A stretch of 35,561 nucleotides of DNA from a virus. Its lineage: Duplodnaviria > Caudoviricetes. The notes under the pieces were generated by a model. That model worked only from the letters and a program-made list of their open reading frames with translations, made no database searches and was not told the origin of the DNA. Location: IMG/VR virus record IMGVR_UViG_3300022218_000009, positions 1 through 35,561 of that record; one strand, 5' to 3'. Shown here piece by piece: positions 1,961 to 32,302 of this stretch. Every line of letters starts with the position of its first letter. The first letter of the stretch is position 1. The translations under genes were made by a program, and so were the position numbers.

Positions 1961-2806
1961 ATGAGTAAATTAGGAAGAATAAGGGGTACTGATAATGAAC
2001 TGATTGAATCAGTATTAGGTACTTTAAATATATCTTTACATGATGGTTTAGGTAATCCTATCAACTCGTACAGGGGTGCTGTAAACACACATGATGCTGA
2101 TGTTCATAGAGAGATTATCAATCAACAGTTTCATCAACATACAGCTACAGTTACTACTTTTGCTGTAGCTGCTTCTGCTGGTGATACACAAATAGAATTA
2201 GCAGATGCTACAGGTTTTGCTACAGGTAATTATTTACATTTAGCTGATGGTGGTGTGGAGCATCCTCACCCTAAAATTACTTTATCAGGGACTACTGCTA
2301 CTTTAGATAGACCTCTTGACTATAGTTTTGCTATTGGTGATCCTATTGTAAAAGCTCTTGTTAATATGAATGTTATAGGTAGTTTAGCTTCACCTCAAAG
2401 TTTTAAAATAGAACCTTTATCTACTGAGGTTATGCACATAACAAGAATATTAATAGAAATGACACATGGTACTGCCGGTGATAATGGTTTATTTGGTGAT
2501 TTAACAACGCTTACAAATGGTGTTGTTTTAAGAAGGTATGATGGTACAACCGGTACAACCGGTATTTTTACTGTTTGGAAAAATAATAGTGATATTGTAA
2601 CTGATATGTATGATGTTACTTATTCAGCACGTTCAGGTGGTGGTGGTGCTTATGGTACAAATGCTAGAGGTACATTTAAAGAAGCAGGAGCTATAGTTTA
2701 TCTTGATGGTTCAAAAGGTGATTATTTAGAAGTTTTAATTCAAGATGATCTATCAGGTTTAGGCTCATTTAGAATAAAAGCACAAGGTCATTATGAAGAT
2801 AGTTAA
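1961..2806 (+). CDS. Putative tail-associated structural protein
   Basis: 281 aa, Gly/Thr-rich, TTFAVAASAGDTQIELADATGF motif seen in virion proteins; lies in the tail cluster. Confidence 0.45.
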   Translation: MSKLGRIRGTDNELIESVLGTLNISLHDGLGNPINSYRGAVNTHDADVHREIINQQFHQHTATVTTFAVAASAGDTQIELADATGFATGNYLHLADGGVEHPHPKITLSGTTATLDRPLDYSFAIGDPIVKALVNMNVIGSLASPQSFKIEPLSTEVMHITRILIEMTHGTAGDNGLFGDLTTLTNGVVLRRYDGTTGTTGIFTVWKNNSDIVTDMYDVTYSARSGGGGAYGTNARGTFKEAGAIVYLDGSKGDYLEVLIQDDLSGLGSFRIKAQGHYEDS

Positions 2807-2810
2807 AAGT

Positions 2811-2821
2811 TATGGTACAAT
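2811..2821 (+). promoter_or_regulatory. Extended -10 promoter upstream of the cupin-SET/ejection genes
   Basis: TATGGTACAAT, matching the TATGnTAyAAT motif also at 27922 and 32316. Confidence 0.55.
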
Positions 2822-2894
2822 ATTGAACAAGAATTAAAAAGTTGAGTTTTAAAAGAGTTTCCAACTACTCATAAACATTTATGAAGGGAAAGTT

Positions 2895-3599
2895 TTGAAA
2901 GCACCTACTTATTTTTGTGAAGCTATTGTACCTATTAAACATGAAATAGTTGATGGTATGTATGTTAGAACTGCTTATGCAAAAAAAGATCAACTTATTG
3001 TAGGGTGTTCTCATAAAAAACCAGGTATAGCTTTCTTAGAAAAAGGTAAGATAAGACAATTAGATGGTGAAAAAAAATATGAGATAGAAGCACCATTTAA
3101 AATAGCTACTGAAGCAGGATCTCAAAGATTTGCTTATGCTATGGAAGATACTACTTACACAACTGTTCATAGAGTTGAAGCTAAAACTGTAGAAGAAGCC
3201 GAACTAGAAGTGTTTGGTGAATTACCTCAACTTACTAGAATTAAAAAAAGTTATCAAGCTTTACTGCTAGAACATAACTTATCTGATAAAGATGTTCAAG
3301 AGGATATGAATAGTAAAGAAGTTATAGTTGAAGATTCAGATATGTATTATTTATCAGATTCTCCTATTCACGGTTTAGGGTGTTTTGCAGATAAAGATAT
3401 AGAAGCTGGTGAAAGTATCGCTGTATCTTTATTAAACGGTGTAAGAATGACTACAGCTAGGTATGTTAATCATTCAGATATACCTAATGCTAAACATATT
3501 CAAATAAAAGATGATCTAATAGCTTTAGTAGCTATGGTAGATATACCTAAAGATTATGAAATATTAACTAATTACAAGGAGATATTATGTCAGCAATAG
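2895..3599 (+). CDS. Cupin-like N-terminal domain fused to a SET-domain methyltransferase
   Basis: C-terminal SET motifs SPIHGLGCFA..DI..GE, ARYVNHSDIPNA, A..DI...EILTNY; N-terminal H...GMYVR...VGCSH...G.I...EAP....AGSQRFAYA.ED...TVH cupin-like pattern; TTG start with AAGGG RBS. Confidence 0.8.
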   Translation: MKAPTYFCEAIVPIKHEIVDGMYVRTAYAKKDQLIVGCSHKKPGIAFLEKGKIRQLDGEKKYEIEAPFKIATEAGSQRFAYAMEDTTYTTVHRVEAKTVEEAELEVFGELPQLTRIKKSYQALLLEHNLSDKDVQEDMNSKEVIVEDSDMYYLSDSPIHGLGCFADKDIEAGESIAVSLLNGVRMTTARYVNHSDIPNAKHIQIKDDLIALVAMVDIPKDYEILTNYKEILCQQ

Positions 3600-4261
3600 C
3601 TACAGCTATAGTCGGTGGTGCTGTTATAGGTGGTTATGCTTCTTATGAAGCAGGTGAAGCACAAAAAGAAGGTGCTGAAGCTGCAGCAGCAGCACAGCTT
3701 GAAGCAGCTCAAATAGGAACTGAAGAACAGAGAAGACAATTTGATTTAATGCAAAAAACTCTTCAACCTTATGTAAGTGCTGGTGAAACAGCATTATCAG
3801 GACAAATGGCTTTAGCAGGTTTGGCAGGTGAAGATGCTCAACGTACAGCTATATCTAACTTATCAGAATCACCTTTATTTCAATCTCAAGTTCAACAAGG
3901 TGAAGAAGCATTACTACAACAAGCTTCTGCAACAGGTGGTGTAAGAGGTGGTAATATACAAGGGGTTTTAGCTCAATATAGACCTCAAATGCTTCAACAA
4001 GAGATTAATAATCAATACTCACGTTTAGGTGGTATTACACAAGTAGGACAAGCGAGTGCTGCAGGTGTGGGTGCAGGTGCTATGCAAACAGGAGCTAATA
4101 TATCCAACCTTCAACAACAAGCAGGTGCAGCAATAGCAGGTAATCAATTAGCTCAAGCTCAAGCAACTGCTAATCAGTATTCAGGTATTGCAAGTAGTAT
4201 ATCTCAACCTCTTACTACTTTTGGTACTTTAAACTATATGAAACAATTAGGAGCGTTCTAA
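3587..4261 (+). CDS. DNA ejection/transfer protein, P22 gp7-like
   Basis: Ala/Gly/Gln-rich; hydrophobic N-terminus; EEQRRQFD..Q..LQPYV.AG..AL, Q.GEEALLQ.ASATGG.RGGN motifs. Confidence 0.75.
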   Translation: MSAIATAIVGGAVIGGYASYEAGEAQKEGAEAAAAAQLEAAQIGTEEQRRQFDLMQKTLQPYVSAGETALSGQMALAGLAGEDAQRTAISNLSESPLFQSQVQQGEEALLQQASATGGVRGGNIQGVLAQYRPQMLQQEINNQYSRLGGITQVGQASAAGVGAGAMQTGANISNLQQQAGAAIAGNQLAQAQATANQYSGIASSISQPLTTFGTLNYMKQLGAF

Positions 4262-5559
4262 TGCAACCATTGAATTATATGATAAATGTACCTAATCCTA
4301 CACAAGATGTAATGAAGGGTATTCAACAAGGTATGAGTTTAGCACAAGGTGTAGGCCAAATGGCTAACTTGAGATCACAAAGAGATTTAGCTGATGCTAA
4401 AAAGGCACAAGTTGAACAGCAACAAAAACAGTTTGGTATTTTACAAAAAGATTTAGGTGCTTTATCTTCTAAGTCTAATCCTACTGCTAAAGATTATACT
4501 GATGTTATGATTAAACACCCTCAAATATCTGAGCACTTAAACAAGAGTTATAATATTATGAATCAAGATCAGAAAGATCAAGCTGTAAAAGATGCTAGTA
4601 ACATATATTCTGCTATTAGTGCAAATAATACTGATTTAGCTGTTCAACTCTTAGAGAAGAAAAAACTAGCTGCTGAAAATTCAGGATTAAAAGTGGAAGC
4701 CGATGCTGCTGACGCTATGATACAAATGATAAAAATGAACCCTGAAGCTGCTAAAACAACTGCTGGTTTATTCTTAGCTTCTTCTGTTGGTGCTGATAAA
4801 TTTCCTGAGATGTATGATAAGTTAGGTCAATCAACAGGTGGTTATTCAGTTCTAACTGCAAATGATAAAAAACAATTAGGACTTCCTGAGAATGTACCTT
4901 TTCAAATGTCACCTAAAGGTCAGATAACACAAATAGGTTCTAAAGGTATAACTGTTAATGTTGAAGGTGAACCTCAATTTGGAACTATACCACCAGGTTA
5001 TCAAATAACTAAAGTTGGTGATAGTTTTAGAATGGAAGCTATACCTGGTTCACCTGCTGAAGCAAAAATAAAAGATCTAGCTAATACTAAAAATAAAGCT
5101 AAAGTAGAAAGAGTTAGAACAGGTGGTATAGTTCTTAAAGATCTTGAGAGATTAGAAAAGAAAATAAAAAACGCTCCTTGGTACAATCCTGTTACAGGTG
5201 TTACAGGTGCTGTAGCTTCTTTTATACCAGGAACTAATCGTGTAGATGCTGAGAGTTTATTTGAAACTGTTACTGCTAATATAGGTTTTGATAAACTTCA
5301 AGCTATGAGAGAAGCTTCACCTACAGGCGGTGCTCTTGGTGCTATATCAGATAGAGAACTTAGTAATCTTCAAGCTGTTATGGGTAGTTTACAATTATCT
5401 CAAAGTGAAGAACAGTTACTTCAAAATATAAACCGTTTAAATGGTGTATATAAAAAGATTCTTAAAAAAGCTGAAGCTTATCCTAATGCTGGTGAGTTTG
5501 GTTTTGACTTAACTGAAGAGAATAAGCAAGATATTTATAAAAAATATGGAATAGAATAA
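4261..5559 (+). CDS. DNA ejection protein, P22 gp20-like
   Basis: MQPLNY start, helical Gln/Lys/Ala-rich, C-terminal GGALGAISDREL..LQ...GSL; second gene of the ejection triplet; TAATG coupling. Confidence 0.6.
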   Translation: MQPLNYMINVPNPTQDVMKGIQQGMSLAQGVGQMANLRSQRDLADAKKAQVEQQQKQFGILQKDLGALSSKSNPTAKDYTDVMIKHPQISEHLNKSYNIMNQDQKDQAVKDASNIYSAISANNTDLAVQLLEKKKLAAENSGLKVEADAADAMIQMIKMNPEAAKTTAGLFLASSVGADKFPEMYDKLGQSTGGYSVLTANDKKQLGLPENVPFQMSPKGQITQIGSKGITVNVEGEPQFGTIPPGYQITKVGDSFRMEAIPGSPAEAKIKDLANTKNKAKVERVRTGGIVLKDLERLEKKIKNAPWYNPVTGVTGAVASFIPGTNRVDAESLFETVTANIGFDKLQAMREASPTGGALGAISDRELSNLQAVMGSLQLSQSEEQLLQNINRLNGVYKKILKKAEAYPNAGEFGFDLTEENKQDIYKKYGIE

Positions 5560-7601
5560 TGGCTAATTTAGAACAATTAAAAAAAGCACTTATACAAGCT
5601 GATACTGCTGGTGATACTAAAGCTGCTGAATTATTTGCTCAAGATATTAAAAAATTACAAACTACTCAACCTATTGTTGATCCTAGAACTATACCTGAGC
5701 GTTATGAGGACTTACCACCTAAACAAGAACCCACTATAGGTGAAAAAGTTGTTGGTGCTGGTGAAGCTGCTTTAGCTACAGGTACTGCTATGACAACAGG
5801 TGCTGTAGGTCACATTGTAGGAGCTATTAAAGGTATTGCTAAATCTATCAAAGATGGTACTTATGGTTCTATGGAAGGTGCTAGAGAGATGGAAAAACTA
5901 GCTCAAGAATATGCTGGTGAACTTACTTATGAACCTAGAACTAAAACAGGTAAAGAATATACTCAAGATGTAGCTGAAACAGTAGCCCCTTTAGAAGCTT
6001 TAACTCCTATGACTGCTGAAATAGGTGCTATGGGTAGAAATATACCTCAAAACATTCCTAGAAGAAGACCTAAACCTAAAGTTGAGAAAGTGGAAGAAGG
6101 ACTTGATTTAGAAGGTATTGCTGTTATGTCAGTAGATGCTGCTCAAGGTAATAAAAAAGCTAAAGCTAATTTGGCTAGAGAAGTTAAAGCTAACCCTGAA
6201 GCTATAGATGCTGCTGATAGATTAGGTATAGAGTTACCAGCAGATGTATTAGGTGATAACACTTTAATTAAACAAACAGTAGGTTTAGTTAGATCTCAAG
6301 TAGGTGAAGAAAGTGCTAAATTTGCTGATATGATTGATAACGCTGTTACTAAATCTGATGAAGCACTCTCTACTTTAGAACAAAGCGATTTAGCTACTAT
6401 GAGTGGTAAGATTATGGATAACTTTAATAAATCTCTTAGTGATCTAAATAATCAAGCTGCTAAAATATATGGTGAAGTTACAAATAAAATAGAAAAAAAT
6501 TCTGAAGTTACAGTAAATAACTCTAAAGAAGCTGTTTTGAAATACTTAGATGATTTAGGAATAGTTCCTGATGAAAAAGGTAAAGCTGATTTAAGAGGTT
6601 TAACTAAAGAAGAAAGGGATCTTTACAGACTTGTTACATCACCTAAAGTAACTTTTGGAGCATTAGAGAGAGAAAGAAGAGGTATTGGCGAAGCTTTAGG
6701 TAAAATGCCTACAGGTAAATATGCAAATTCTGATAAATCGTTACTTAAAAAACTTTATGGTTCATTAAAAAAAGATCAATTAGATAATGTTGAAACTATT
6801 TTAGGTAAAGATGCTAGAGATCAACTTCATTTAGCAGATAGAACTTTTCAAAAGAAAATAGCACTTGAAGAAAGAGCTGCTGATGTGTTTGGTAAAGAAG
6901 GTGATAAAAGTATAGCTTCATTGTTAAGACGTTCTATGTTACAAGGATCTAAAGGTGATATAACTGCTTTAAATAAAGTATTTAAAAACGTACCTCAAGA
7001 GTTACAAAAAGAAGCTATAGGCTCTGCTTTAGCTGATATAGCAACTTCTAAACAGGGTAGGTTTAACTTTAATGATTATGTTAAGCTTTATCAAGGGCTT
7101 AGAAAAAACGCTCCTATCTATAATAAGATTATTAAAACTTTAGGTGAAGATAAGCATAAATTACTACAAGACCTGTATGTAACTTCTAAGCGTTTACAAG
7201 ATGCTAAGAATAAAATCATATCTACAGGTAAAGCTAATCAAGCTATTCTAAATAAGATACAAGAAGAAGCTTTATTACAGAGAGTAATAAGGTTTACAGT
7301 TGAAAAAGGTGTTAAAACTGCTACTTTTGGAGGTTTACAACCTAGTTTAGATATGCTTTTTAAAGCACCTAAAGATAAGATAAAAGCAATTAGTGATCTT
7401 TTTGTATCTCAGGAGTTTAAAAATTTAGCTGTTGATGCTATTGATAAAACACCAGGTATGAGTAAGGTTAAGGCTTTTACTAATAGCAAAGCATTTAAAA
7501 AGTGGAATAAAACTATTGGTAATACAATTAAAGAACCTGAAACATGGATCTTAGAATCTTTTACATTAAATAAGGAACAGAACAATGAAAACAATAAATA
7601 A
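5559..7601 (+). CDS. DNA ejection protein, P22 gp16-like
   Basis: 680-aa helical protein, third in the ejection triplet; Gly/Ala hydrophobic segment near the N-terminus. Confidence 0.6.
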   Translation: MANLEQLKKALIQADTAGDTKAAELFAQDIKKLQTTQPIVDPRTIPERYEDLPPKQEPTIGEKVVGAGEAALATGTAMTTGAVGHIVGAIKGIAKSIKDGTYGSMEGAREMEKLAQEYAGELTYEPRTKTGKEYTQDVAETVAPLEALTPMTAEIGAMGRNIPQNIPRRRPKPKVEKVEEGLDLEGIAVMSVDAAQGNKKAKANLAREVKANPEAIDAADRLGIELPADVLGDNTLIKQTVGLVRSQVGEESAKFADMIDNAVTKSDEALSTLEQSDLATMSGKIMDNFNKSLSDLNNQAAKIYGEVTNKIEKNSEVTVNNSKEAVLKYLDDLGIVPDEKGKADLRGLTKEERDLYRLVTSPKVTFGALERERRGIGEALGKMPTGKYANSDKSLLKKLYGSLKKDQLDNVETILGKDARDQLHLADRTFQKKIALEERAADVFGKEGDKSIASLLRRSMLQGSKGDITALNKVFKNVPQELQKEAIGSALADIATSKQGRFNFNDYVKLYQGLRKNAPIYNKIIKTLGEDKHKLLQDLYVTSKRLQDAKNKIISTGKANQAILNKIQEEALLQRVIRFTVEKGVKTATFGGLQPSLDMLFKAPKDKIKAISDLFVSQEFKNLAVDAIDKTPGMSKVKAFTNSKAFKKWNKTIGNTIKEPETWILESFTLNKEQNNENNK

Positions 7602-13478: not shown

Positions 13479-13588
13479 TGTTGTGTTCCATATAATATAA
13501 AAAGTAAAATGACATAAATAACATAAATAACATTTACCCAAAACCACGGATTATCAATAGTAACTTCTTTTAAATTTTTCATATCCAT
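13475..13588 (-). CDS. Small membrane peptide (37 aa, MDMKNLKE...WFWVNVIYVIYVILLFILYG)
   Basis: Read manually; TAATG and ATGA coupling on both sides; one TM helix. Confidence 0.65.
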   Translation of the reverse strand: MDMKNLKEVTIDNPWFWVNVIYVIYVILLFILYGTQQ

Positions 13589-14169
13589 TATATCCACCTA
13601 ATAATAGGTTCACCCTTGTAAGAGTGTTCCCATATAAACCACGCATAAGCAACCGTACCACCCCACTTTTTACCTGTTTTAGGGTTTAACTCTAAACCAT
13701 CTCTCCTATCATCTTGCCTAGCACTAAACACATATACATATTTAAGAGGTGTATTTTTAAAGAAATCTTTTCTAGCTTGACCTTCTAAGAACTGAAGCTT
13801 TAAAAACATAGCTACACCTGTATTAGTCATTGATAGAGATTTTTCTATAAACTCTTTAGCAAACTTATAAGGTGGGTTAGTAATTATCCAATCAACTTTA
13901 CTATCATCTTCAAGAGTTAGAAAATCTTTTACTCTAGTTCTTTTATAACCTCTATGTACTAAATCATAGAATTTATACTTAGCCTCAGGGTAGTATTCTT
14001 TTAGAACATTAGCTATGTGACCTTGACCTACACAAGGTTCAATAAAAGATGAACTTTCAATAGGATAAATATCTAAAAGATCTCTAACACTTTGAGGATT
14101 AGTAGCATAAAAATCATCTACTTCTCTACCATAAGTGCTGTTAGATCCTGCTAATCTACTACCTTTCAT
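13588..14169 (-). CDS. DNA amino-methyltransferase (probably N6-adenine), small phage type
   Basis: DDFYATNP, EPCVGQGHI (motif I), IITNPPY (motif IV); start at ATG 14169 or TTG 14178. Confidence 0.85.
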   Translation of the reverse strand: MKGSRLAGSNSTYGREVDDFYATNPQSVRDLLDIYPIESSSFIEPCVGQGHIANVLKEYYPEAKYKFYDLVHRGYKRTRVKDFLTLEDDSKVDWIITNPPYKFAKEFIEKSLSMTNTGVAMFLKLQFLEGQARKDFFKNTPLKYVYVFSARQDDRRDGLELNPKTGKKWGGTVAYAWFIWEHSYKGEPIIRWI

Positions 14170-14533
14170 TGTTTTCAATCTCCAATAAAAATAACAAACT
14201 ACATATAGCGTGAGCTAAGTGATTCTTACCACTTTCAGGATCAATCTTCTCACCTTGTTGATAAGCTAATATATGTCTTAATGGTGCAGATATATATCTT
14301 TCTTTATCATCTACTTTACTCCAATTTTTACGATCATATTTTTTAGCTCCAAACTCCATAACTTCAGCAACTTCAGATAAAGCATTACCTGTATCAAATA
14401 ATATAGCTAAGTTTACTTTGTTGTTATCAGCTTTGACAAACTCATCTTTAACCTCAGTTACTTTAAATGTGTTATCAGATTTAACATCCTCATTAAAACA
14501 TTCACAACTTGTTCTTTTACATACATCACACAT
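14159..14533 (-). CDS. dATP/dGTP diphosphohydrolase-like (DUF5664) protein
   Basis: V.EFGAKKY...NW...RY....LRH......GE..DPESG..HLAHA.C..LFL signature. Confidence 0.85.
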   Translation of the reverse strand: MCDVCKRTSCECFNEDVKSDNTFKVTEVKDEFVKADNNKVNLAILFDTGNALSEVAEVMEFGAKKYDRKNWSKVDDKERYISAPLRHILAYQQGEKIDPESGKNHLAHAICSLLFLLEIENNER

Positions 14534-15554: not shown

Positions 15555-15601
15555 TTAAAGTATATATAAAGTTTTATTAAAGTATGTTTAAAGTTCTATA
15601 C
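15555..15601 (-). promoter_or_regulatory. Leftward promoter with 11-bp-period TTAAAGT repeats
   Basis: -10 TATACT (plus 15559-15564); heptamers at 15555, 15566, 15577, 15588; the box 15577-15601 is 23/25 identical to 20678-20702. Confidence 0.65.
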
Positions 15602-17491
15602 TTTAACACCTAAATCTGCTAAATGTTCTTCACATAATCTTAAATACTTATCATAATCAAGATCTTTAGGTATATTATCTGTTAGATCCATCATAGGTTT
15701 AGCACCTTCAGATTTTGGAACTTTATTACCATTAGTTTTAAATATCATTTTACCATCCATTGAATAGTACCATCTAACCGTTTTACCTAAATACTGAGTA
15801 TCTGATGAAGCTAATACTTGTTCTTTATGGTAGTTATCGTTACGCTTCTCAAGAGCTTTATTTTGCTTTAGTTGTTTATCTATATAGTTGGTGTACTCTT
15901 CAGTATCTTCAAGACTATTACCATAATAATAAACAGCACCACCTGTTACTTTTGTACTAAGTGTAAATCTAGCTACATCTTTACAATTATAAATAGTTTC
16001 TTCCATTGGTATATCTTTAGCTAAATACTCTCTAATAGCTTCAAATACAATAGGATATTCAACATTCTTCATTAATGGTGGTACTGCTTCTTCAGGATCT
16101 ACATAAGAACCCTTTGCTTTAGCTTTACCACCTGGATAAACTGCTACATAGTTATTTACATCTCTAGCAAATAGAGCGTTATACTCTCCAAACTCCATTT
16201 CCATTTTAGTTTCATCTTCCCATTCAGCAACTAATGATCTAAGTGAATCTTCTTGAGATTTTTTAAGTAGAACTTCTACACCATCCGTATTAGATGAAAC
16301 AACTCTCATACCTTGATCTTCAATCATCTCAATAAGCATTAGTAAATATAACTGCCCTGTAAACGTAACAGTTAGAAGTAAATCAGGTGAGTAAAGAAAG
16401 CTATACTTATTACCAAACTTACCATAACTACCATTTAAAGCAATTTTTAGAACATCATTAACAACTTTATTACCTGATCTTTTAGCTTCAAGTCTATCAG
16501 CTTTAATTTTTGCATAAACTTTTAAGAACTTTTTAGTAAGTTGTTTAGGATATAAACCTAATGCTAGTATAAGTGAAGGATAATATGAAGCAACATCAAC
16601 ATTCATAAGCTTCTCATCTTTACCAGGAACTACTACAAGTTGTTTCTCTTGAGAGTGTAAACCACCTAAACCTATATTATAAATGTTTTCACCTAGTTCA
16701 ATAGTAGTATCTTTTAACCATTGAGGTAATAAAGGTGCTCCATTCTCACCTAGTTCAATAGTAGTATCTTCTATCTTATCTACAATATCATTAAGATCAT
16801 CTCTAATAAACCTTACTGATTCAGGAGCTATATAATTAACATTGTTAGCTTTACCTCTTTGAACTTTCACACCTTCTTTAGATAACTCAGCTCTAAATAT
16901 TGCTTCAGCTATTTGAGCATCTGATTTACTCATAACATCAATATCATACTGATTACCTATTTGTTCTCTCAGTTTTAGCATAGGTATAAGTTTATTGTAT
17001 AGATCTAAAGTAGTTATTAAATCGTTTATATTATATTTAGCTACTTCTGCAGCTTGTTCATCAGTTAGTTTAGTATGTGGATCATAAGGTAGATCCTGTA
17101 ACTTCTTAGAGTTTAAACGTGCACCATATAATTTTAATGAAGCTTGTCCGGGTGCAACATCTATTAAATCTATACTCTCAAACTCTTTATTGATATTAAA
17201 CTTTTTGTAAACTTCCCAATATCTAGTTTGAGATTCAATAATAGCTTTAGATTTTCTATAAACTTGAGATACAGAATTTCCTAATAACATATAAGTAAAT
17301 ATAGGATCATCATAAGCTTTAGAGTTGAACCCTACTAATTGATTCATTAATCTTATCATTCTCTTAATATCTTCTTTACTAAAACTATCAAAAGACTCAA
17401 ACTGTTTAACTCTTTTAGTAACTGTACTCATAAACCCTACACACATATAGTTAGGATAACATTCAATATCATACACCCATAAATTATTCAT
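15596..17491 (-). CDS. Family B DNA polymerase with 3'-5' exonuclease domain
   Basis: YDIECYPNY (ExoI), GFNSKAYD (ExoII), YNIND (ExoIII), DVASYYPS (A), K.ALNGSYGK (B), NTDG (C). Confidence 0.92.
   Translation of the reverse strand: MNNLWVYDIECYPNYMCVGFMSTVTKRVKQFESFDSFSKEDIKRMIRLMNQLVGFNSKAYDDPIFTYMLLGNSVSQVYRKSKAIIESQTRYWEVYKKFNINKEFESIDLIDVAPGQASLKLYGARLNSKKLQDLPYDPHTKLTDEQAAEVAKYNINDLITTLDLYNKLIPMLKLREQIGNQYDIDVMSKSDAQIAEAIFRAELSKEGVKVQRGKANNVNYIAPESVRFIRDDLNDIVDKIEDTTIELGENGAPLLPQWLKDTTIELGENIYNIGLGGLHSQEKQLVVVPGKDEKLMNVDVASYYPSLILALGLYPKQLTKKFLKVYAKIKADRLEAKRSGNKVVNDVLKIALNGSYGKFGNKYSFLYSPDLLLTVTFTGQLYLLMLIEMIEDQGMRVVSSNTDGVEVLLKKSQEDSLRSLVAEWEDETKMEMEFGEYNALFARDVNNYVAVYPGGKAKAKGSYVDPEEAVPPLMKNVEYPIVFEAIREYLAKDIPMEETIYNCKDVARFTLSTKVTGGAVYYYGNSLEDTEEYTNYIDKQLKQNKALEKRNDNYHKEQVLASSDTQYLGKTVRWYYSMDGKMIFKTNGNKVPKSEGAKPMMDLTDNIPKDLDYDKYLRLCEEHLADLGVKV
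16689..16770. repeat. 25-bp perfect direct repeat inside the polymerase gene
   Basis: TCACCTAGTTCAATAGTAGTATCTT at 16689-16713 and 16746-16770; the protein has DTTIELGEN twice. Confidence 0.9.
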
Positions 17492-19980: not shown

Positions 19981-20625
19981 TTAAAGTTCCTTTAACTCAA
20001 TAGCTTTAAATATAAAATATTTCCACTTGTTCCACCACTCTAAAGCGTCTTCATCCATACCTTTTATATAATCATCATCAAAGTTCTTCCACTCTTCAAT
20101 AAGGAATCGTTTACAACCTATTTGTAAAGTATCTTTTGTAAAACCTATTTGATAAGTATCTAACTGCATAGTACAAATAAATTTCATATCTCCAAATGCT
20201 CTTAGGTCAGCACCATATAGGTTAGCACCTCTTAGGTCAGCACCTCTTAGGTTAGCACCATATAGGTTAGCACCTCTTAGGTCAGCACAATATAGGTCAG
20301 CACTCTCTAGGTCAGCACTCTCTAGGTTAGCACCTCTTAGGTTAGCACCTCTTAGGTTAGCACAATATAGGTCAGCACTCTCTAGGTTAGCACCTCTTAG
20401 GTTAGCACCATATAGGTTAGCACCTCTTAGGTCAGCACAATATAGGTCAGCACAATATAGGTCAGCACTCTCTAGGTTAGCACCTCTTAGGTTAGCACAA
20501 TATAGGTCAGCACTCTCTAGGTTAGCTTTTTTACTTACTGCTTCTTTTACAGCTTCTACTATCGTATTAGCTGTATCACTTTTAAATATAACTTCTAGTG
20601 AAAATCTACTCTTAATCTCAATCAT
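19981..20625 (-). CDS. Pentapeptide-repeat protein
   Basis: 22 A[ND]Lxx repeats; C-terminal LQIGC......W...D......MD..A..WW domain common in phage pentapeptide proteins. Confidence 0.92.
20197..20526. repeat. Tandem 15-bp coding repeat array (22 units)
   Basis: Minus strand GCT-(AAC/GAC)-CTA-(AGAGGT/TATGGT/TATTGT/GAGAGT); the last unit ends AGA GCA. Confidence 0.95.
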
Positions 20626-20768: not shown

Positions 20769-20903
20769 ATGGTTTTGAAAGATAAAATCTTATTATGGGG
20801 TGTTATTGTTATTATGGTGGTTTCAGTAATTTATGGGATCTTAAATTCCCTTGATTGTGAAATTAAAAATAAAAGGATATATTGTGAAAAAGTTTATAGA
20901 TGA
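20769..20903 (+). CDS. Small membrane peptide (42-44 aa)
   Basis: Read manually; AAGGGAG RBS (TTG 20775 may be the start); ILLWGVIVIMVVSVIYGIL TM helix. Confidence 0.6.
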   Translation: MVLKDKILLWGVIVIMVVSVIYGILNSLDCEIKNKRIYCEKVYR

Positions 20904-21264
20904 AGCGTTAAGAACGGAGAGTAGTAATTTTATTACTCTAATGGATGAGGATCTAAATGAGTTTAGTACAGAGCGTTTAGTTCATGCTTGTTTTGGTATG
21001 CAAACAGAAACTTCTGAGTTTACTGATGCTATTAAGAAAGCATTGTTCTATGGTAAAGATTTGGATGTAGTAAATCTAAAGGAAGAGTTAGGTGATCTTA
21101 TGTGGTACATGGCTATTGCTATGGATGAGTTAGGAACTGATTTTGAAACAGAAGCTAATAGAGTTATCAATAAGTTAAAAGTTAGATACCCTGAAAAGTT
21201 TAGTAATGAAGCAGCAACTACTAGAGATTTAGAAGCTGAGAGAAAGGTGTTAGAACAATGTTAA
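20884..21264 (+). CDS. MazG-like nucleotide pyrophosphohydrolase
   Basis: G...E..E..D..KK..F.G...D...LKEELGDLMWY...N..KL..RYP; GTG 20884 with AAGGA RBS is preferred over 20851. Confidence 0.88.
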   Translation: MKKFIDEALRTESSNFITLMDEDLNEFSTERLVHACFGMQTETSEFTDAIKKALFYGKDLDVVNLKEELGDLMWYMAIAMDELGTDFETEANRVINKLKVRYPEKFSNEAATTRDLEAERKVLEQC

Positions 21265-21689: not shown

Positions 21690-23992
21690 CTTTTAAATAC
21701 AGTATCAGTAAGAACCACTACAACGGTTATAAGTTCAAAGAAGCTAAGAGTGTATCTGAGTTGCTTCAGGATCTAGCAACTAAATGTGTATCACCTGTTA
21801 CTGAGTATAAAGATAAAGAACTTACTTCAGTTGATACAGGTAAAACTTGGATGAGTAAGAATCATAGATCTAATCCTACTATTGTAGGTCGTGGTAATAT
21901 GGGTATGATTGATTATGAAGGTAGTCCTGAGAACTTCACTAAACTTATTAAGAAGATTGAAGATAAAGAGTTGTGGTATGTAGCTATTCCTTCTCAGTCA
22001 AACAAGAGTGATAAGAAGAACGCTAGGTATCATATTATGTATATATTAGCTAAGTCATATAGTATTAACTCAGAAGCTTATAAGAAACAAGCTAAAGAGT
22101 TCTTTGATTATATAGGTTACAAATGGGATGATCCTGATAGTGGTATAGATACTAGAGCTTCATTTAATGGTTGTGGATATTTCGCACCAACTATACAACT
22201 AGCTACTGATAAAGGTAAAGGTGCTAAGAAGATTAGTGATCCTTACTTAACTAATGAAGATATTGTTAAAGATACTCATGTTAGTAGATTCAAAGGTGAG
22301 TACACACCTACTACTGCTGCAAGTAATGAGGCTAATGAAGAGTTTACCAACATTATTAAGCGTGGTAGAAAGTTAGATGATAAATACACTAAGATAGTAA
22401 GAACTACATCTAAGGGTTATGTATTAGCTCCTGAAACTCACATTGAAGTTAATAATGGTAGGTTCATGACTTTTGAAAAGTTAGTTGAAACATTAGAAGA
22501 TAGTGATAGTGAGAACCCTAGAATATCTATGTTAGGTTGTCCTATTTGTAATCCAGGTCATACTGCACCAACTACTGTAGGTTATGCTTATATGCAATTC
22601 GATTATGAAGGTAAACCTTATATATGTTGTACAGGTAATGCTTGTGCATCTAGACCTTACTTTACTATGGCCGAGGGTGATCTTGCTATTTATCGTATAG
22701 GTAAGGGTAGTGATTATGTACTACTTAAAGATGAACAACTTGTTTACACTCATAAAGAGAATGAAACGTATGAACATACAAGTGATAGTATCATAGGTGA
22801 GTTATATCAAGATGGTTTAGCAATACTTGATGATTATGGGAACATTAACTCAGAACTAACTAGGAAACACTTTTGTTTACAAGCTGAGAGATTAGATGTT
22901 ACTAAGAACCCCTGGATTGAAGAGGGTATTGATTACAATGATATGACTTTCAATATATCTAAACCAGCTAAGTTTGAACCAACTGAAGCAGATCCTGATG
23001 AAGTTATATCTGAAGCTATTAAAGTTTTTGATAATGATGTTTTGATAGGTGATTATCCAGCTCCTTTAGTTTATCTAGCTTACTACTTATTTCATGATAC
23101 TAGAATTATGGCTAGTTTATTCCTGGTAAATCATAAGACAGGTTCAGGTAAGACTTTTTGGACTTATGAGCTTCCTGCATGGTTTTTAGGTGAAACTAAA
23201 GTTGGTTTAATGGATCGCGCTGCTATGACTAAAAATTGGGGTGATGTTAAACTTGGTAAGAGATTAGTAGTGTTTGAAGATATAGATGGTTTAACTAAGC
23301 AACAAGTTAATGAAATAGCTTCAGACATTAAAACTATGACTACTGCTGCTGGTTCTAATATAATGTTAGATATTAAAGGTAGAGGTCAGATGAAGTCTTA
23401 TGGTTATAATATTTTAGGTACTTCTAATGATGAGAAACAAGTACCTGTAAGTGGTGAAGAAGATAGACGTATCTATATTAGTGAGGTTCGTGTATTAGAG
23501 AACGCTAATTGGATCAGAGAACAGTTGATGGGAACTAATGGTGATAAACATAAAGCTAATGCTATTAACTATCTGTATAAGATCTACAATCATGTTAAGA
23601 GATTACCTGAGTGTCACGATTCTATATTTTATAGAGTACCTAAAACTGCTAAGAAGAAAAGTGTAACTGATTCGCAAAGTAATGATGGTATTCAAGCTAT
23701 GAACATTATAAGACGTAATGAGAAGACTAGGTTAATCATTAAAGAGTTAGAAGCTTTAGTTGTAAGTAGTACAAGTGAAAAAGAGTTAAGAAAGATTGTT
23801 GAAGAGATTGATATTAAAAATCATAATATTAGTGGTGCAACACTTGATAAACTTTGGAAGGTTCTTCCTAGTGGCGCGAATGATATTAGTGATAAGTCGT
23901 ATAAACAACTTGGAAAGATATTTGGGTTGTTAGATTACAAAACTGTAGTAGTTAATGGTAGTAGATTGAAAGGGTTTAAGTATGGGAACTGA
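21686..23992 (+). CDS. Primase-helicase (AEP-like N-terminus, Zn-binding middle, SF3/D5-like helicase)
   Basis: MIDYE, PSQS...RYHI, GID (AEP-like motifs); CPIC...H...CC....C; GSGKT, LVVFED, GTSN, DRR. Confidence 0.8.
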   Translation: MTFKYSISKNHYNGYKFKEAKSVSELLQDLATKCVSPVTEYKDKELTSVDTGKTWMSKNHRSNPTIVGRGNMGMIDYEGSPENFTKLIKKIEDKELWYVAIPSQSNKSDKKNARYHIMYILAKSYSINSEAYKKQAKEFFDYIGYKWDDPDSGIDTRASFNGCGYFAPTIQLATDKGKGAKKISDPYLTNEDIVKDTHVSRFKGEYTPTTAASNEANEEFTNIIKRGRKLDDKYTKIVRTTSKGYVLAPETHIEVNNGRFMTFEKLVETLEDSDSENPRISMLGCPICNPGHTAPTTVGYAYMQFDYEGKPYICCTGNACASRPYFTMAEGDLAIYRIGKGSDYVLLKDEQLVYTHKENETYEHTSDSIIGELYQDGLAILDDYGNINSELTRKHFCLQAERLDVTKNPWIEEGIDYNDMTFNISKPAKFEPTEADPDEVISEAIKVFDNDVLIGDYPAPLVYLAYYLFHDTRIMASLFLVNHKTGSGKTFWTYELPAWFLGETKVGLMDRAAMTKNWGDVKLGKRLVVFEDIDGLTKQQVNEIASDIKTMTTAAGSNIMLDIKGRGQMKSYGYNILGTSNDEKQVPVSGEEDRRIYISEVRVLENANWIREQLMGTNGDKHKANAINYLYKIYNHVKRLPECHDSIFYRVPKTAKKKSVTDSQSNDGIQAMNIIRRNEKTRLIIKELEALVVSSTSEKELRKIVEEIDIKNHNISGATLDKLWKVLPSGANDISDKSYKQLGKIFGLLDYKTVVVNGSRLKGFKYGN

Positions 23993-24737
23993 TCTATTTA
24001 ATGGTGATTGTTTAGAAATTATGGATAAGTTAATAGAAGAATGTGTTAAAGTAGATGCTATTATAACTGATCCACCTTACGGTACTACTGCTTGTAAATG
24101 GGATAGTGTCATTCCTTTTGATGAAATGTGGCTTAGATTAAACAAACTCATAAAACCTAATGGTGCGATAGTTTTGTTTGGAAGTGAGCCTTTCAGTAGT
24201 GCTTTACGAATGAGTAATATTAAGAATTACAAATATGATTGGGTTTGGGAGAAGTCAAGACCTATGGGATTTTTAGAAGCAAAAAATAAGCCTATGAAAA
24301 AGCACGAAAATATTTTAATGTTTAGTTTTGGGAATAGTGCAAATGGGTGTAAAAATAGAATAACATATAATCCTCAAGGACTAAAAGAGATAAATAAAAA
24401 AATGAAAAACAGCACTGATACTGATAATCTAGGAAATAGAAAATCAAGAGATGTTGGTACAGAGTATATACAAAAGCACACCAACTACCCAAACACAATA
24501 TTAAGATTTAAAAGTGCTTCAAAAACAGTACACCCCACACAAAAACCAGTTGCACTAATGGAGTATCTTATCAAGACTTACACAAATGATGGTGAGTTAG
24601 TTTTAGACTTCACAATGGGGTCAGGAACGACAGGCGTAGCGTGTAAGAACTTAGATAGAAACTTTATAGGCATAGAATTAGATAGTAAATATTTTAGAAT
24701 AGCTAGGAAAAGATTAAGACACGTTAAAACCTCTTAA
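23982..24737 (+). CDS. DNA N6A/N4C methyltransferase, beta class
   Basis: GDCLE, ITDPPY, HPTQKPV.L, VLDFTMGSGTTG, FIGIE. Confidence 0.92.
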   Translation: MGTDLFNGDCLEIMDKLIEECVKVDAIITDPPYGTTACKWDSVIPFDEMWLRLNKLIKPNGAIVLFGSEPFSSALRMSNIKNYKYDWVWEKSRPMGFLEAKNKPMKKHENILMFSFGNSANGCKNRITYNPQGLKEINKKMKNSTDTDNLGNRKSRDVGTEYIQKHTNYPNTILRFKSASKTVHPTQKPVALMEYLIKTYTNDGELVLDFTMGSGTTGVACKNLDRNFIGIELDSKYFRIARKRLRHVKTS

Positions 24738-27965: not shown

Positions 27966-30068
27966 ATGGAAGACTATAACGAAAACACAACTACAGAAGA
28001 AGAACAAACTGATGAGCTTAAAGAGATACATGAAGAAGCTTTAGAAGATTTTAACCGTGCTCAAAGTCCTGTTGCTGATGAACGTGAACAATGTTTAGAA
28101 GATAGAAGATTTTACTCTATATCAGGTGCTCAATGGGAAGGTAATCTTGGAGATCAGTTTGAAAACAAACCTCAACTAGAAGTAAATAAGATCCACTTAT
28201 CAGTTATGAGAATAATCAATGAGTATAGAAACAACCGTATTACAGTTGATTTTATGTCAGATGCTAATGATGGTATTGCAACTACTTGTGATAAGTTATA
28301 TCGTGCTAATGAACAAGAATCTAATGCTGATGAAGCTTATGATAATGCTTTTGAAGAATCTGTTGGTGGTGGTTACGGTGCTTGGAGATTAAAAGCTGAG
28401 TATGAAGATGAAGAAGATGAAGATAATGACTTTCAAAAAATAAGCATACTTCCTATTTATGATGCAGATGCTTCAGTATTTTGGGATCCTAATGCTAAAC
28501 GTCAAGATAAGAAAGATGCTAAATACTGCTTTGTAATAAGTGCTAAGAATAAAGAAACTTATGAAGAAGAGTACGGTGAATATGGTGATAGTGTACCTAA
28601 AGAAGTAGATCAAAGTGAGTTTGATTGGTCACCTGATGAGATTATTTATATAGCTGAATATTTTAAAGTGGAGCACGTTAAGAAGACTGTAAATGTTTAT
28701 GAAAATGCTCTTGGTGAAGAGAAGCGTTATACTTCAGATGAGTTAGAAGATGATCCTGAATTACTTGAAGAGTTATTAACTTTAGGTTTTAAACTTGTTA
28801 AATCTAAGACTGTTAAAAAACAAAAAGTTCGTAAATATATTATAGATGGTAAAAAAGTTCTTGAAGATTGCGGTTACATAGCTGGTAAATATATTCCTAT
28901 AGTTCCTATGTACGGTAAAAGATGGGTTGTTGATAATGTAGAACGCTGTATGGGACACGTTAGACTAGCTAAAGATGTTCAAAGATTAAAGAATATGATG
29001 TTATCTAAATTAGCTGAGTTTAGTGCTTCAAGTGGTATAGAGAAACCTATTCTTACTCCTGAACAAGTATCAGGACATGAAAAGATGTGGAGTGATGAAG
29101 CTGTTGAAGATTATCCTTATCTGCTTATTAATCCTATTACTGATGCAAATGGTAATGAAGTAGCTTCTCCACCAATAGGTTATACTAAACCACCTACAAT
29201 ACCACCAGCTTTAGCTGCATTATTACAATTAACTGATGGTGATATTAGAGAGTTATTAGGAGATCATCAAGCTATTGAGAAAGTAGTATCTAATATTTCA
29301 GGTGAAGCTATAGCTCAAATAAAAGAAACTCTTGATATGCAAACTTTCATCTATATGTCAAATATGGCTAAAGCTATGAAGCGTTCAGGTGAGATATGGT
29401 TATCAATGGCTAAAGATATTCTTATTGAAGAAAACCGTAAACTAAAAGGTTTAAATGAGAATGATGAGATAGAGTACATAGATATTTCTAAACCAACTAT
29501 GAATAAAGATACTAATGAAGTAGAGTATTTAAACGATATTACTAAAGCTAACTTAGATATTAAAGTAGCTGTAACTCCTTCAACTACTACAAGACGTGCT
29601 AAAACTGTTAAAGATATTACTAATATGCTTCAAATAACTTCAGATCCTGAGTTACAACAAGTATTAAGTTCAACTGCTGTTCTTAACATGGAAGGTGAAG
29701 GTGTTGATGATATTAAACAGTTCATAAGAAAGAAACTTATTAAGATGGGAGCTATACAACCTACTGAAAAAGAAGGTCAAGAGATGGTTGAAGAGTTACA
29801 AAATGCTAAACCAACTGCTCAAGATAGTTACCTGGAAGCTGAAGCTACTAAGTCTAAAGCTCAAGCTGAAAAATATGTAGCTGATACTCAAAAAGCTCTT
29901 GCTGATGCAGAGAAGATTAAAGTAGAGATGATAGAGATAGTTGCTAAACTTAAACGTGAAAATCAAGGTGCTGGTATAAGTCAAGCTAAAATGCTTCAAG
30001 AGTTAATGGAGAAAGGTCAAGCTAGACCTATGCAACAAGGAACTATTCCTGAAGCAGGAGAATTTTAA
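27966..30068 (+). CDS. Portal protein, P22 gp1-like
   Basis: 700 aa; EDRRF..I.G.QW, P.LE.NK, AYDNAF.E...GG.GAWR, IP.VP.YG, G.VR.AKD.QR..N; C-terminal coiled barrel. Confidence 0.9.
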   Translation: MEDYNENTTTEEEQTDELKEIHEEALEDFNRAQSPVADEREQCLEDRRFYSISGAQWEGNLGDQFENKPQLEVNKIHLSVMRIINEYRNNRITVDFMSDANDGIATTCDKLYRANEQESNADEAYDNAFEESVGGGYGAWRLKAEYEDEEDEDNDFQKISILPIYDADASVFWDPNAKRQDKKDAKYCFVISAKNKETYEEEYGEYGDSVPKEVDQSEFDWSPDEIIYIAEYFKVEHVKKTVNVYENALGEEKRYTSDELEDDPELLEELLTLGFKLVKSKTVKKQKVRKYIIDGKKVLEDCGYIAGKYIPIVPMYGKRWVVDNVERCMGHVRLAKDVQRLKNMMLSKLAEFSASSGIEKPILTPEQVSGHEKMWSDEAVEDYPYLLINPITDANGNEVASPPIGYTKPPTIPPALAALLQLTDGDIRELLGDHQAIEKVVSNISGEAIAQIKETLDMQTFIYMSNMAKAMKRSGEIWLSMAKDILIEENRKLKGLNENDEIEYIDISKPTMNKDTNEVEYLNDITKANLDIKVAVTPSTTTRRAKTVKDITNMLQITSDPELQQVLSSTAVLNMEGEGVDDIKQFIRKKLIKMGAIQPTEKEGQEMVEELQNAKPTAQDSYLEAEATKSKAQAEKYVADTQKALADAEKIKVEMIEIVAKLKRENQGAGISQAKMLQELMEKGQARPMQQGTIPEAGEF

Positions 30069-32302
30069 TGAACCCTCAATTTGTAAACCCTGAAGATGTA
30101 ACTGCTACAATGCCTGAAGATGTGTTTGATAGATCTCAAGCACTTCAAGCTGAAAGACAAAAGACTGTAGAAGGTTTACCTACTTTTGGTGAAACTATGT
30201 ATAGATCTACTGCTGATATTATAGGAACACCTGTTGATTTGGCTTCTATGGCTTTAGCACCGTTTGGTTATAGTGAGAAAGCTCCTATTGGTGGTTCTGA
30301 ATACTTTAAACAAATGGGTGAACAAAAAGGTATTATATCTTCAGCTTCTAACCCTATACTAGAAATAGCTGCTAGTTTAGTAGTACCTGATCCGTTGGAT
30401 GTACTTACTGTTACTAAAATGGCTACTCCTTTAATGATGGGTGCTATTGGTTTAGGTGGTGATGTTGGTAGAAAAATGGCTGATGATGTACCTGAAATGG
30501 TAGATGATGTAAAACCTTTTTACTCACAACTAGAACGATATATAGAAGGTGGTCAAAACGCTTACACTAAAGAACAAGCTAAAGGGTTTTTATCTAAACA
30601 AGGTTTAAAAGAAGATGAAATGAAATGGAGTGGTTTAAAAGATTATCTTGATTCACTTCCTGAAGGTTCTAAAGTTACAAAACAAGAATTACAAGAGGTT
30701 GTAAACCCACCTAAACTAGAAAAGAAAGTGTTAGGTGAACTTCCTAAAAAAGAAACTGAAGATATGTTTATCTTAGATTATGAAGATTTAGATGATGAAG
30801 TAATAGATTATTTAATTTCTTTAGATCCTCAAGATAGAGAAGTTGCTGAACAAATGATGAAACAATCTAATCAAAACTTATTAACAGATGGTACTTTTGA
30901 AAATGAATGGAATAAAATGATTACAAAGTACCCCGATCAAGATCATAATATAATTCATGATGTAAATGATGCTCTTTTTGATGAATACCATGAAGCTTAC
31001 TCTAAAGCAGATTTTGAACCAAAATATAGAGAATATGCAACAAGAGATGTAGGAACTAATTATCGTGAAGAATTGACTACATTAGGTTTAGAAGACAAAA
31101 AAGAAAAAGAACTTAACATTCTTTATGATGAAATTGCAAACAACCCTTATAAATACCCTAGAGGTAGTGATAAATATAATGATTACTTAGACTTATCACA
31201 AGAAATAGCTGAAACTAAAACAGGAAAAACAATAGTAAATAAACCTTATTCTGATGGGAGTGATAGATGGGTAATTTATGATAAAGATGGGAATGTTCAA
31301 CCTAAGATGTATGGTGAAAATAGACAAGGGGCTATAGCAGAACTAAATAATGAGGCTAGAATAAGCGATAGTAGTTATAAATCTTCACATTGGGATGAAC
31401 CTAATGTACTCTATCATGTTAGAAAACAAGATACTAATATAGAAGGTGATAACACTCTTCTTATTGAAGAAATACAATCCGATTGGCATCAAGCTGGAAG
31501 ACAAAGTGGATATAAAGGTTCTCAAGATGAAATAGAAAAAGCTAAAAAAGCTAGTAATGATTATAAAGAAATGTTAAAAACAAAATACGGTTTAGAAGAT
31601 GCTACACCTATGAAGTTAAGAGCTTATTTAAGAGATAACGGTTTAACTGAAGAGAGAGATACACTAAACAGATTATCAGCTGAATCAAATGCTGTAGATA
31701 AAGCCCTTGCTGTACCACAAGCTCCTTATAGTAAAACATGGCACGAAAAAGCTATGAAAGATCAAATAGCTGAAGCTGTTGAAAAAGATTATGATAGGGT
31801 TGCGTGGGTAGCAGGGAAGGAACAAGCAGGTAGGTATTCGTTATCTAAGCAAATAGACAAGCTAGAAGCAGAAGAAGCACCGTTAAAAGATGGCACTTAT
31901 GATGTATGGATATATAAGGATGGAGAAAGGGATTATCTAGGTAATAAAACTAAACTAGAATTATCAGACACCATTGGAAAAGATATGGCTGAAAAAGTAG
32001 TAAAAGATAATGGTGGAATTTATGAAGGGTTAGATTTAGAAGTAGGAGGTGAAGGTATGAAAGGCTTTTATGATAAAATGCTCCCCAAGTGGGTTTCTAA
32101 ATATATTAAAAAATATGATTCTAGTGTAGAAATAAAAGAACTTCCTAACGGTCAAAAAGTCTGGAGCTTTCCTGTTACTGATAAAATGAAACGGGAAGTG
32201 AGTACAAAAGGACAACCTTTATATACTCATCCTGCTACAGTTGGTGCTGTTGGTTTAGGTATTGGAGCTGGTGCTATGTATGAAGAAGAGGAAGGATTAT
32301 AA
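30068..32302 (+). CDS. Large accessory protein, polyvalent-protein/internal-virion-effector-like
   Basis: G.PVD...P.GGS N-terminus; FYSQLE...GLKEDE..WSGL; NYRE; SHWDEPNV..H.R; LLIEEIQSDWHQ; GMKGFYD; hydrophobic Gly-rich C-terminus. Confidence 0.6.
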   Translation: MNPQFVNPEDVTATMPEDVFDRSQALQAERQKTVEGLPTFGETMYRSTADIIGTPVDLASMALAPFGYSEKAPIGGSEYFKQMGEQKGIISSASNPILEIAASLVVPDPLDVLTVTKMATPLMMGAIGLGGDVGRKMADDVPEMVDDVKPFYSQLERYIEGGQNAYTKEQAKGFLSKQGLKEDEMKWSGLKDYLDSLPEGSKVTKQELQEVVNPPKLEKKVLGELPKKETEDMFILDYEDLDDEVIDYLISLDPQDREVAEQMMKQSNQNLLTDGTFENEWNKMITKYPDQDHNIIHDVNDALFDEYHEAYSKADFEPKYREYATRDVGTNYREELTTLGLEDKKEKELNILYDEIANNPYKYPRGSDKYNDYLDLSQEIAETKTGKTIVNKPYSDGSDRWVIYDKDGNVQPKMYGENRQGAIAELNNEARISDSSYKSSHWDEPNVLYHVRKQDTNIEGDNTLLIEEIQSDWHQAGRQSGYKGSQDEIEKAKKASNDYKEMLKTKYGLEDATPMKLRAYLRDNGLTEERDTLNRLSAESNAVDKALAVPQAPYSKTWHEKAMKDQIAEAVEKDYDRVAWVAGKEQAGRYSLSKQIDKLEAEEAPLKDGTYDVWIYKDGERDYLGNKTKLELSDTIGKDMAEKVVKDNGGIYEGLDLEVGGEGMKGFYDKMLPKWVSKYIKKYDSSVEIKELPNGQKVWSFPVTDKMKREVSTKGQPLYTHPATVGAVGLGIGAGAMYEEEEGL

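Follow-up and report, generated by a model that had tools for sequence, protein, structure and literature searches.

What would a gene encoding a cupin joined to a SET domain do immediately before the first DNA ejection gene of a P22-like phage? This slot, that of T7 gp13 and P22 gp14 (IVP-A), has so far been described only as acetyltransferase-like and non-structural, as set out for T7 and phiRIO-1-like phages in part of PMC4819975. The gene 2895–3599 lies in the near-complete genome (CheckV 98%; 32% GC) of a P22-like podovirus (IMG/VR record IMGVR_UViG_3300022218_000009; the window, i.e., the whole stretch of DNA analysed, is 35,561 nucleotides long). A sequence-only reading had proposed that its product methylates lysine-rich ejection proteins or is delivered to the host. 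The covariation described here points to another candidate substrate, the exposed N-terminus of the protein encoded next. This substrate signature is the new element, and through it the role of the slot as a whole becomes open to experiment.

The head and virion module of the window contains terminase, P22-like portal, scaffold, P22 coat, gp4 and gp10 (47–1405), with two genes without assignment between gp10 and 2895–3599 (Table 1). The gene starts with TTG, four close relatives start at the equal position, and a scan of 2600–3700 for sigma-70-like promoters found none versus 5.1 expected in shuffles. As had been claimed, it occupies the T7 gp13/P22 gp14 position directly 5' of IVP-B and overlaps by 13 nt a gp7-like gene (34.2 bits to Pfam P22_gp7, cut-off 28; E 9e-37 to phrog_598), whose hydrophobic Met-Ser-Ala leader is the sole one of its kind among the 39 ORFs of the window. 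Elsewhere, the window combines the P22-like head with a T7-like SSB and a lytic-type replication module, and encodes a family B polymerase (15596–17491), MazG (20851–21264), a dATP/dGTP diphosphohydrolase, two DNA methyltransferases (13588–14533 and 23982–24737), a pentapeptide-repeat protein (19981–20625) and, between portal and scaffold, a 744-aa ORF without a Pfam or PHROG match (30068–32302).

Table 1. Features of the cupin-SET gene and of the ejection genes that follow it
Feature	Position	Strand	Basis or remark
Shine-Dalgarno-like AAGGGA, 5' of the TTG start	2884..2889	+	sequence
Cupin-SET gene	2895..3599	+	234 aa, PHROG 34170 family
Cupin domain, residues 8–108	2916..3218	+	PHA00672-like, PHROGs 12032/24280
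Helical hairpin, residues 112–140	3228..3314	+	goes with SET in both domain orders
Minimal SET domain, residues 146–231	3330..3587	+	profile, alignment, PDB comparison
AAGGAG ribosome site of the gp7-like gene, within the SET coding sequence	3576..3581	+	sequence
gp7-like (IVP-B) DNA ejection protein, 224 aa, 3 Lys	3587..4261	+	Pfam P22_gp7, phrog_598
Leader of the gp7-like product, hydrophobic and without Lys, starting Met-Ser-Ala (proposed substrate)	3587..3646	+	
gp20-like ejection protein	4261..5559	+	phrog_2534, E 6e-12
Probable gp16-like ejection protein	5559..7601	+	phrog_6704 (function label: unknown); from position and size

The SET hallmarks that had been recognised by eye are all present, namely SPIHGLGCFA (residues 156–165, nt 3360–3389), RYVNHSDIPN (residues 189–198, nt 3459–3488) and EILTNY (residues 222–227, nt 3558–3575), and the product scores 35.7 bits against Pfam SET (PF00856, cut-off 22.4), while none of four proteins compared with NCBIfam matched a family there. 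Searched against the PDB, the family profile recovers the MLL1 SET domain (E 1.6e-14) and vSET (1n3j, E 6.9e-12). An AlphaFold2 model built from a 20-sequence alignment (pLDDT 89, pTM 0.83) consists of a beta-barrel (8–108), two helices (112–140) and a beta-rich C-terminal domain, of which residues 148–232 match EZH2 (Z 10.1, rmsd 2.3 Å over 84 residues), SET8 (Z 9.8) and SMYD3 (Z 9.4, rmsd 1.1 Å over 72 residues); vSET, recovered by the profile search instead, was absent among the fold-search matches listed. Across 121 cupin-SET sequences with a median pairwise identity of 29%, S156, G160, G162, N192, E222 and Y227 are invariant, and R189 and H193 are kept in 116 and 120, respectively. The SAM-binding GxG and NHS motifs and the catalytic Tyr are thus invariant or almost so, a pattern that suggests an active SAM-dependent enzyme. 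Two other readings of the gene, a chance SET motif and a pseudogene, were considered and rejected. The domain is minimal: between the two matched blocks the i-SET region has ~10 residues versus ~44 in MLL1, and the chain stops 7 residues past Y227 without a post-SET, so that the parts with which canonical SET lysine methyltransferases complete their lysine channel are largely missing. The helices between the domains had been taken for a linker, and while their presence is confirmed, they belong to the SET module, because they also precede SET in the reversed SET-cupin proteins.

The N-terminal half of the fusion is likewise borne out by the model and the fold searches, with residues 8–109 matching cupins (best Z 11.2, 5j4f; Foldseek E 5e-6, tm1459) and a cupin (RmlC-like) barrel of the double-stranded beta-helix type indicated by Z scores of 9–11 to many cupins over 85–98 residues. 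The whole protein matches phrog_34170, which carries the function label unknown, and its first 100 residues match phrog_12032/24280. Within the 121 sequences, R25 and G51 of the cupin are invariant and Y23 and H40 are kept in >90%. The suggestion that some His ligands are retained holds for H40 alone in the clade of 2895–3599, which has C38, G44 and Q77/R78 at the other positions and so falls short of the three to four His/Glu ligands in motifs 1 and 2 of a metal-dependent cupin. With H40 as the sole ligand left, a metal enzyme was rejected for this clade, and the proposed role of the cupin as a substrate reader would be compatible with the loss of most metal ligands. Small 113-aa cupins found in the same slot have His at all of the metal-ligand positions that the cupin-SET clade has mostly lost. 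The label of tail fibre or adhesin that PHROGs 12032/24280 and databases attach to these cupins was also rejected, as fold and context are against it, which would correct a common 'short tail fibre' annotation.

The partner of the fusion was explored in IMG/VR loci chosen by the SET motif alone (120 loci of an estimated ~370), of which 80 had flanks, comprising 65 cupin-SET and 3 SET-cupin loci (68 fusions) and 12 SET-only loci. The next gene was visible for 66 fusions, its start lying between 28 nt 5' and 24 nt 3' of the fusion stop, and its residue 2 was Ser in 63, Thr in 2 and Ala in 1 (Ser in 55/58 with identical starts removed), with a small-hydrophobic leader following Ser2. By comparison, SET-only loci had Ser2 in 2/9 and a hydrophobic leader in none, and the background of Ser2 was 25% for long ORFs in the same loci, a figure raised by the partners themselves, and 11/99 for other gp7-like genes. 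A GTDB replicate with 22 fusions in 25 loci gave Ser2 in 19/21, with one Thr and one Pro. Beyond the leader, the partners have little in common: with the first 40 residues removed, 77 bodies form unrelated clusters (50 + 7 gp7-type, 6 unknown, 5 J-like/tail hub and 9 singletons); P22 gp7, T7 gp14-like, J-like tail hub and small pre-portal proteins all occur as partners. Similarly, 42 of 60 IMG/VR partners scanned matched phrog_598 (gp7), and the remainder were T7 gp14-like (phrog_418), J-like tail proteins, small pre-portal proteins or without a match. The presumed tie to the ejection module as such is not supported, as J-like tail-hub genes and small pre-portal genes can likewise follow the fusion, provided that their products have a Met-Ser leader. 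Judged by sequence, the partner of cupin-SET is defined by its N-terminus.

In siphovirus tail modules, cupin-SET is inserted between a phrog_2048 tail gene and the J-like central tail protein (L085, L096, L098, L101, L397–L400). The J-like genes with the insertion start MSG(F/I)V, while five inspected relatives without it start MGFLS (10/12 loci inspected, including one relative with a different upstream gene). In phage zth2-2 (OL791268, L411:2396–4394), the stretch after TerL and before the portal region encodes cupin-SET, a 110-aa protein starting MSAM, a GNAT and then a paralogue of the 110-aa protein, with 115 aa and an MGGA start. This amounts to a tandem of two pairs, each an enzyme and a leader, on small proteins that are paralogues.

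An independent control consisted of 115 gp7-like loci collected by an internal motif only (80 + 35 non-duplicate). Their slot held a large cupin (28), a small His-rich cupin (14), cupin-SET (7), four GNAT-type groups (20, several of these labels being based on sub-threshold matches), a sulfotransferase-GNAT (3), the DDxxD helical family phrog_21390 (6), a 117-aa family without assignment (5), an Asp beta-hydroxylase (2) or non-enzyme and other genes (30). GNAT, cupin and cupin-SET genes thus replace one another before gp7, the exchange that the sequence-only reading had suggested looking for. N-termini were compared for 79 loci (enzyme-type class, start ≤40 nt, core ≥60 aa; hydroxylases excluded), and residues 2–3 of gp7 were SG/SA for 6/7 fusions, [T/S][F/W] for 19/26 large cupins (Ser2 in 7/26), PW for 12/14 small cupins and AI for 5/10 of the main GNAT group, with GI (5/5), GL (3/3) and PD/AN (6/6) for other slot types. 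Across the 115-locus sample, a start of Ser plus [G/A/S] occurred at 6/7 fusion loci versus 0/99 others with a clean start, and residue 2 was aminopeptidase-compatible at 81/82 enzyme-type loci versus 18/24 others. Where gp7 cores were ≥80% identical and the slot family differed, residue 2 was shared in 10% of 223 pairs, versus 39% of 71 pairs with the same slot family and cores <50% identical, and the slot types lie dispersed across the tree of gp7 cores (60 changes vs 79 shuffled). As gp7 cores that are 95–100% identical carry different slot genes and different N-termini, the slot gene and the leader move together as a cassette, the N-terminal signature going with the slot gene and not with the gp7 body. 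Linkage also predicts a cassette; it does not predict that Ser should be kept between deeply diverged loci, with codons of both families and on bodies that are unrelated.

Several of the other slot types are of interest in themselves. The 113-aa cupins that precede the MPW starts (L164, L166, L172, L176, L184, L191, L210 and others) have a full His metal site and are likely to be metalloenzymes acting on the MPW N-terminus. An all-helical 150-aa family (phrog_21390; L162, L212, L331, L341, L342, L350), for which a fold predicted from a single sequence reached a pLDDT of 47, too low for use, always precedes gp7 starting MPDPV or MANPV and has a DDxxD-like motif that we take to resemble those of prenyltransferases. 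Sulfotransferase-like + GNAT fusions (L177, L198, L328) have an MGLAAA partner, and Asp/Asn beta-hydroxylase genes occupy the slot at L159 and L197.

A phmmer search returned 1718 cluster representatives at E ≤0.001, many of which may match one domain only; among 171 proteins, a set in which top matches favour two-domain proteins, 134 were cupin-SET, 33 SET-cupin, 2 cupin-only and 2 SET-only. A direct IMG/VR locus search with the single 2895–3599 protein gave no match. Hosts of fusion carriers span many lineages, and cultured carriers include Pseudoalteromonas phage PH1 (gp49) and Rhodoferax phage P26218 (gp30), each with the fusion directly 5' of a 'DNA ejection' gene. Among cupin-only relatives, that of VvAW1 lies 5' of gp7, that of RSB3 occupies the T7 gp13 slot, and those of Alteromonas H4/4 and BPP-1 are 5' of a small pre-portal gene. 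Matched enzyme-leader pairs are at hand in the cultured phages PH1, P26218, VvAW1, RSB3 and BPP-1. On a weakly resolved cupin tree (FastTree, 115 rows, 102 columns, including L016, a 'cupin' row that comes from a truncated contig end), attachment of SET changes at least 5 times on supported branches. Stand-alone mini-SETs with the same motif adjoin terminase, scaffold and capsid genes. A 393-aa protein, P0049, is a triple fusion of a GNAT-like domain (1–115; Atlas 0.95–0.96 to GNAT clusters, no PHROG match), SET and cupin. A search for longer fusions, weak on absence, gave 3 matches among 7994 scored candidates, the one relevant match being P0178, a 1919-aa virion-like protein (phrog_22602) with a mini-SET at residues 563–652 and a candidate injected methyltransferase. 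Cupin-SET is thus a widespread SET-family variant in the IVP-A slot that is unstudied in print: a literature search covering few subscription journals found neither a study of a phage cupin-SET fusion nor anything on N-terminal modification of ejection proteins, and virion proteomics was found for no carrier, including Shewanella X14. Parts of PMC2938197 hold a related idea, the predicted modification of tail-collar proteins by hydroxylase and sulfotransferase, and the literature covered also took in PMC9025141, PMC10386132, PMC9011153, PMC10975493 and bioRxiv 2026.05.18.726046.

From these distributions, it is likely that cupin-SET is a dedicated modifier of the gp7-like N-terminus during assembly. 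Methionine aminopeptidase removes Met before small residues, and a SET-type precedent for N-terminal methylation is the plant Rubisco small-subunit N-methyltransferase. On the preferred reading, the cupin would bind the hydrophobic Met-Ser leader and the SET domain would methylate the alpha-amine of the Ser exposed by the presumed removal of Met, before or during procapsid loading; in other phages, the same job would fall to GNATs or other enzymes fitted to other N-termini. Lys is absent from residues 2–26 in 39/66 partners (the other 27 have 1–3 there), and gp7 is the most Lys-poor product, with 3 Lys in 224 residues (1.3%, lowest of 38 ORFs), which leaves the alpha-amine of Ser as the one amine common to all partners and therefore the favoured site. 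That the cupin holds the leader while SET methylates this alpha-amine has a chance of being right that approaches even without reaching it. Ser2 may also be read by the cupin and not by SET, because cupin-only genes likewise precede MS leaders (e.g., bbp23 of BPP-1, followed by bbp22 starting MSGA); fusions with Ala, Thr or Pro at partner residue 2 exist as well. A complex prediction for cupin-SET 5–232, gp7 2–45 and SAM, run without controls, scored 0.13 against a mark of 0.32 and counts neither for nor against this reading. As the first 20 residues of P22 gp7 are cleaved off and dispensable, according to part of PMC8402733, and many gp7 loci are without an enzyme-like slot gene, an N-terminal modification step would not be universal, and the purpose of the mark is a matter of conjecture. 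If the reading is true, it would provide an N-terminal methyltransferase of the SET fold whose recognition tag is short and portable, and a case of post-translational tailoring of the DNA-entry machine.

The chief alternatives concern the target of SET. In one, the cupin would dock on the leader and the methyl group would go to the side chain of a lysine, either in gp7 just past the leader or in some other protein of the ejection set or the virion. Most SET domains characterised so far act on lysine (all of the best 60 PDB matches listed), 27 partners have Lys near the N-terminus, gp7 of the window has K27, and there are 41 Lys in the 4261 product and 79 in the 5559 product; yet no Lys position is conserved in partner alignments, the partners at L041 and L057 have a single Lys in 250–280 residues, and most of the i-SET segment, which in MLL1 forms the lining of the lysine channel, is absent, making this alternative unlikely. 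The original argument for it is weak, as the ejection proteins are not Lys-rich relative to the proteome of the window (9.5% for the 4261 product and 11.6% for the 5559 product versus a mean of 8.7%), and Lys-richness was rejected as a pointer to the substrate. It is also rather improbable that the cupin alone is an assembly factor, as chaperone or modifier of the hydrophobic leader, with SET a passenger that acts on a small molecule or on a host or other phage protein and gains from late expression. The greater frequency of cupin-only genes in the slot (42/115 vs 7 fusions), the repeated change in SET attachment and the stand-alone mini-SETs would fit a passenger, but both fusion orders and the composition of P0049 argue for a shared target, partner residues 2–3 are S-G/A/S with fused and T/S-F/W with unfused cupins, and SET loss in a sister clade coincides with a switch from MSGW to MAGW.

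A host protein as the target, with cupin-SET packaged and injected or active in the infected cell in the manner of vSET on histone H3, appears very unlikely. Despite the location in an ejection operon, the mini-SET within P0178 and the sequence likeness to vSET, T7 and phiRIO-1-like phages have a non-structural protein in this slot (as stated in part of PMC4819975), the operon is late, and what stays constant across many host lineages is the gene that follows in the phage itself; delivery of a methyltransferase to the host, as once proposed, is without support for 2895–3599. There is least to be expected of a reading in which the N-terminal signature is a by-product of linkage and translational coupling and the enzyme is unrelated to the leader. 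Overlaps of 4–28 nt occur in 46/66 loci, an ATGA overlap forces A at codon 2, and deeper overlaps use TCN, as TCA/TCT, in 22/22 cases; since leader codons overlap or abut the slot gene and recombination carries both, covariation among close relatives is explicable in this way, and independent contrasts of SET presence against partner residue yielded only 4 pairs on supported branches (sign test p 0.25–0.5). ATGA also permits Thr, Lys, Asn and Ile, yet Ser (AGY) is found in 23/24, and without overlap of the upstream frame Ser is still found in 18/20 (11 TCN + 7 AGY), across two codon families, ~29% enzyme identity and unrelated bodies.

The preferred reading of alpha-amine methylation may be extended to a swappable N-terminal code, in which the enzyme gene and the first codons of the next virion gene would form a cassette for the chemical capping of leaders that penetrate membranes, be it on pilot, wedge or tail-hub proteins. 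Cupin-SET would be the SET-fold protein alpha-N-methyltransferase among them and T7 gp13 an acylating member acting on the N-terminal Cys of gp14, and the cassettes would comprise cupin-SET/MS[G/A/S], large cupin/M[T/S][F/W], His-rich cupin/MPW, GNATs/MAI, MGI, MP or MC, sulfotransferase-GNAT/MGL and the DDxxD family/MPDPV or MANPV. Taken jointly, this extension is tentative and on balance doubtful.

Among known systems, MLL1/KMT2A, EZH2, SET8 and PBCV-1 vSET (A612L, PDB 1n3j) have the SET fold and motifs in common with cupin-SET, including motifs I (SxIxGxG), III (RxxNHSxxPN) and IV (E-x4-Y) of PF00856 members, and one GenBank record names a family member after vSET. In contrast to the lysine methyltransferases of PF00856, the phage SET is ~85 residues long, has the reduced i-SET, no post-SET and its own N-terminal helical hairpin, is fused to a cupin in a bacteriophage late operon and has an alpha-amine as its proposed target. 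PHA00672-like phage cupins (PHROG 12032/24280; VvAW1 gp04, RSB3 ORF39, BPP-1 bbp23), labelled in databases as short tail fibre or adhesin, are homologous to the cupin half, with YxR + GxxH motifs, and like cupin-SET lie directly before a leader-bearing virion gene, though without SET. T7 gp13 (PF11090) and P22 gp14 (DUF2824, PF11039) hold the equal position, tightly coupled and directly before IVP-B (T7 gp14, P22 gp7), whereas both domains of 2895–3599 have folds other than GNAT with no GNAT match, and its partner starts MSA versus MCW in T7 and a cleaved MLY leader in P22. Proteins of the gp7/gp14 type are hydrophobic and insert in the outer membrane, as described in part of PMC8954989. In proposed chemistry, the methylation of an N-terminal amine after Met removal, cupin-SET would resemble NTMT1, METTL13 and PrmA, the last of which also pairs a substrate-binding with a catalytic domain, as described in part of PMC10293735. 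The N-alpha methyltransferases named in that part of the source are all seven-beta-strand enzymes, none of them SET; NTMT1, METTL13 and PrmA, with their XPK or AK-type motifs, are non-homologous to cupin-SET, which lacks the seven-beta-strand fold and may work alike without belonging to that group.
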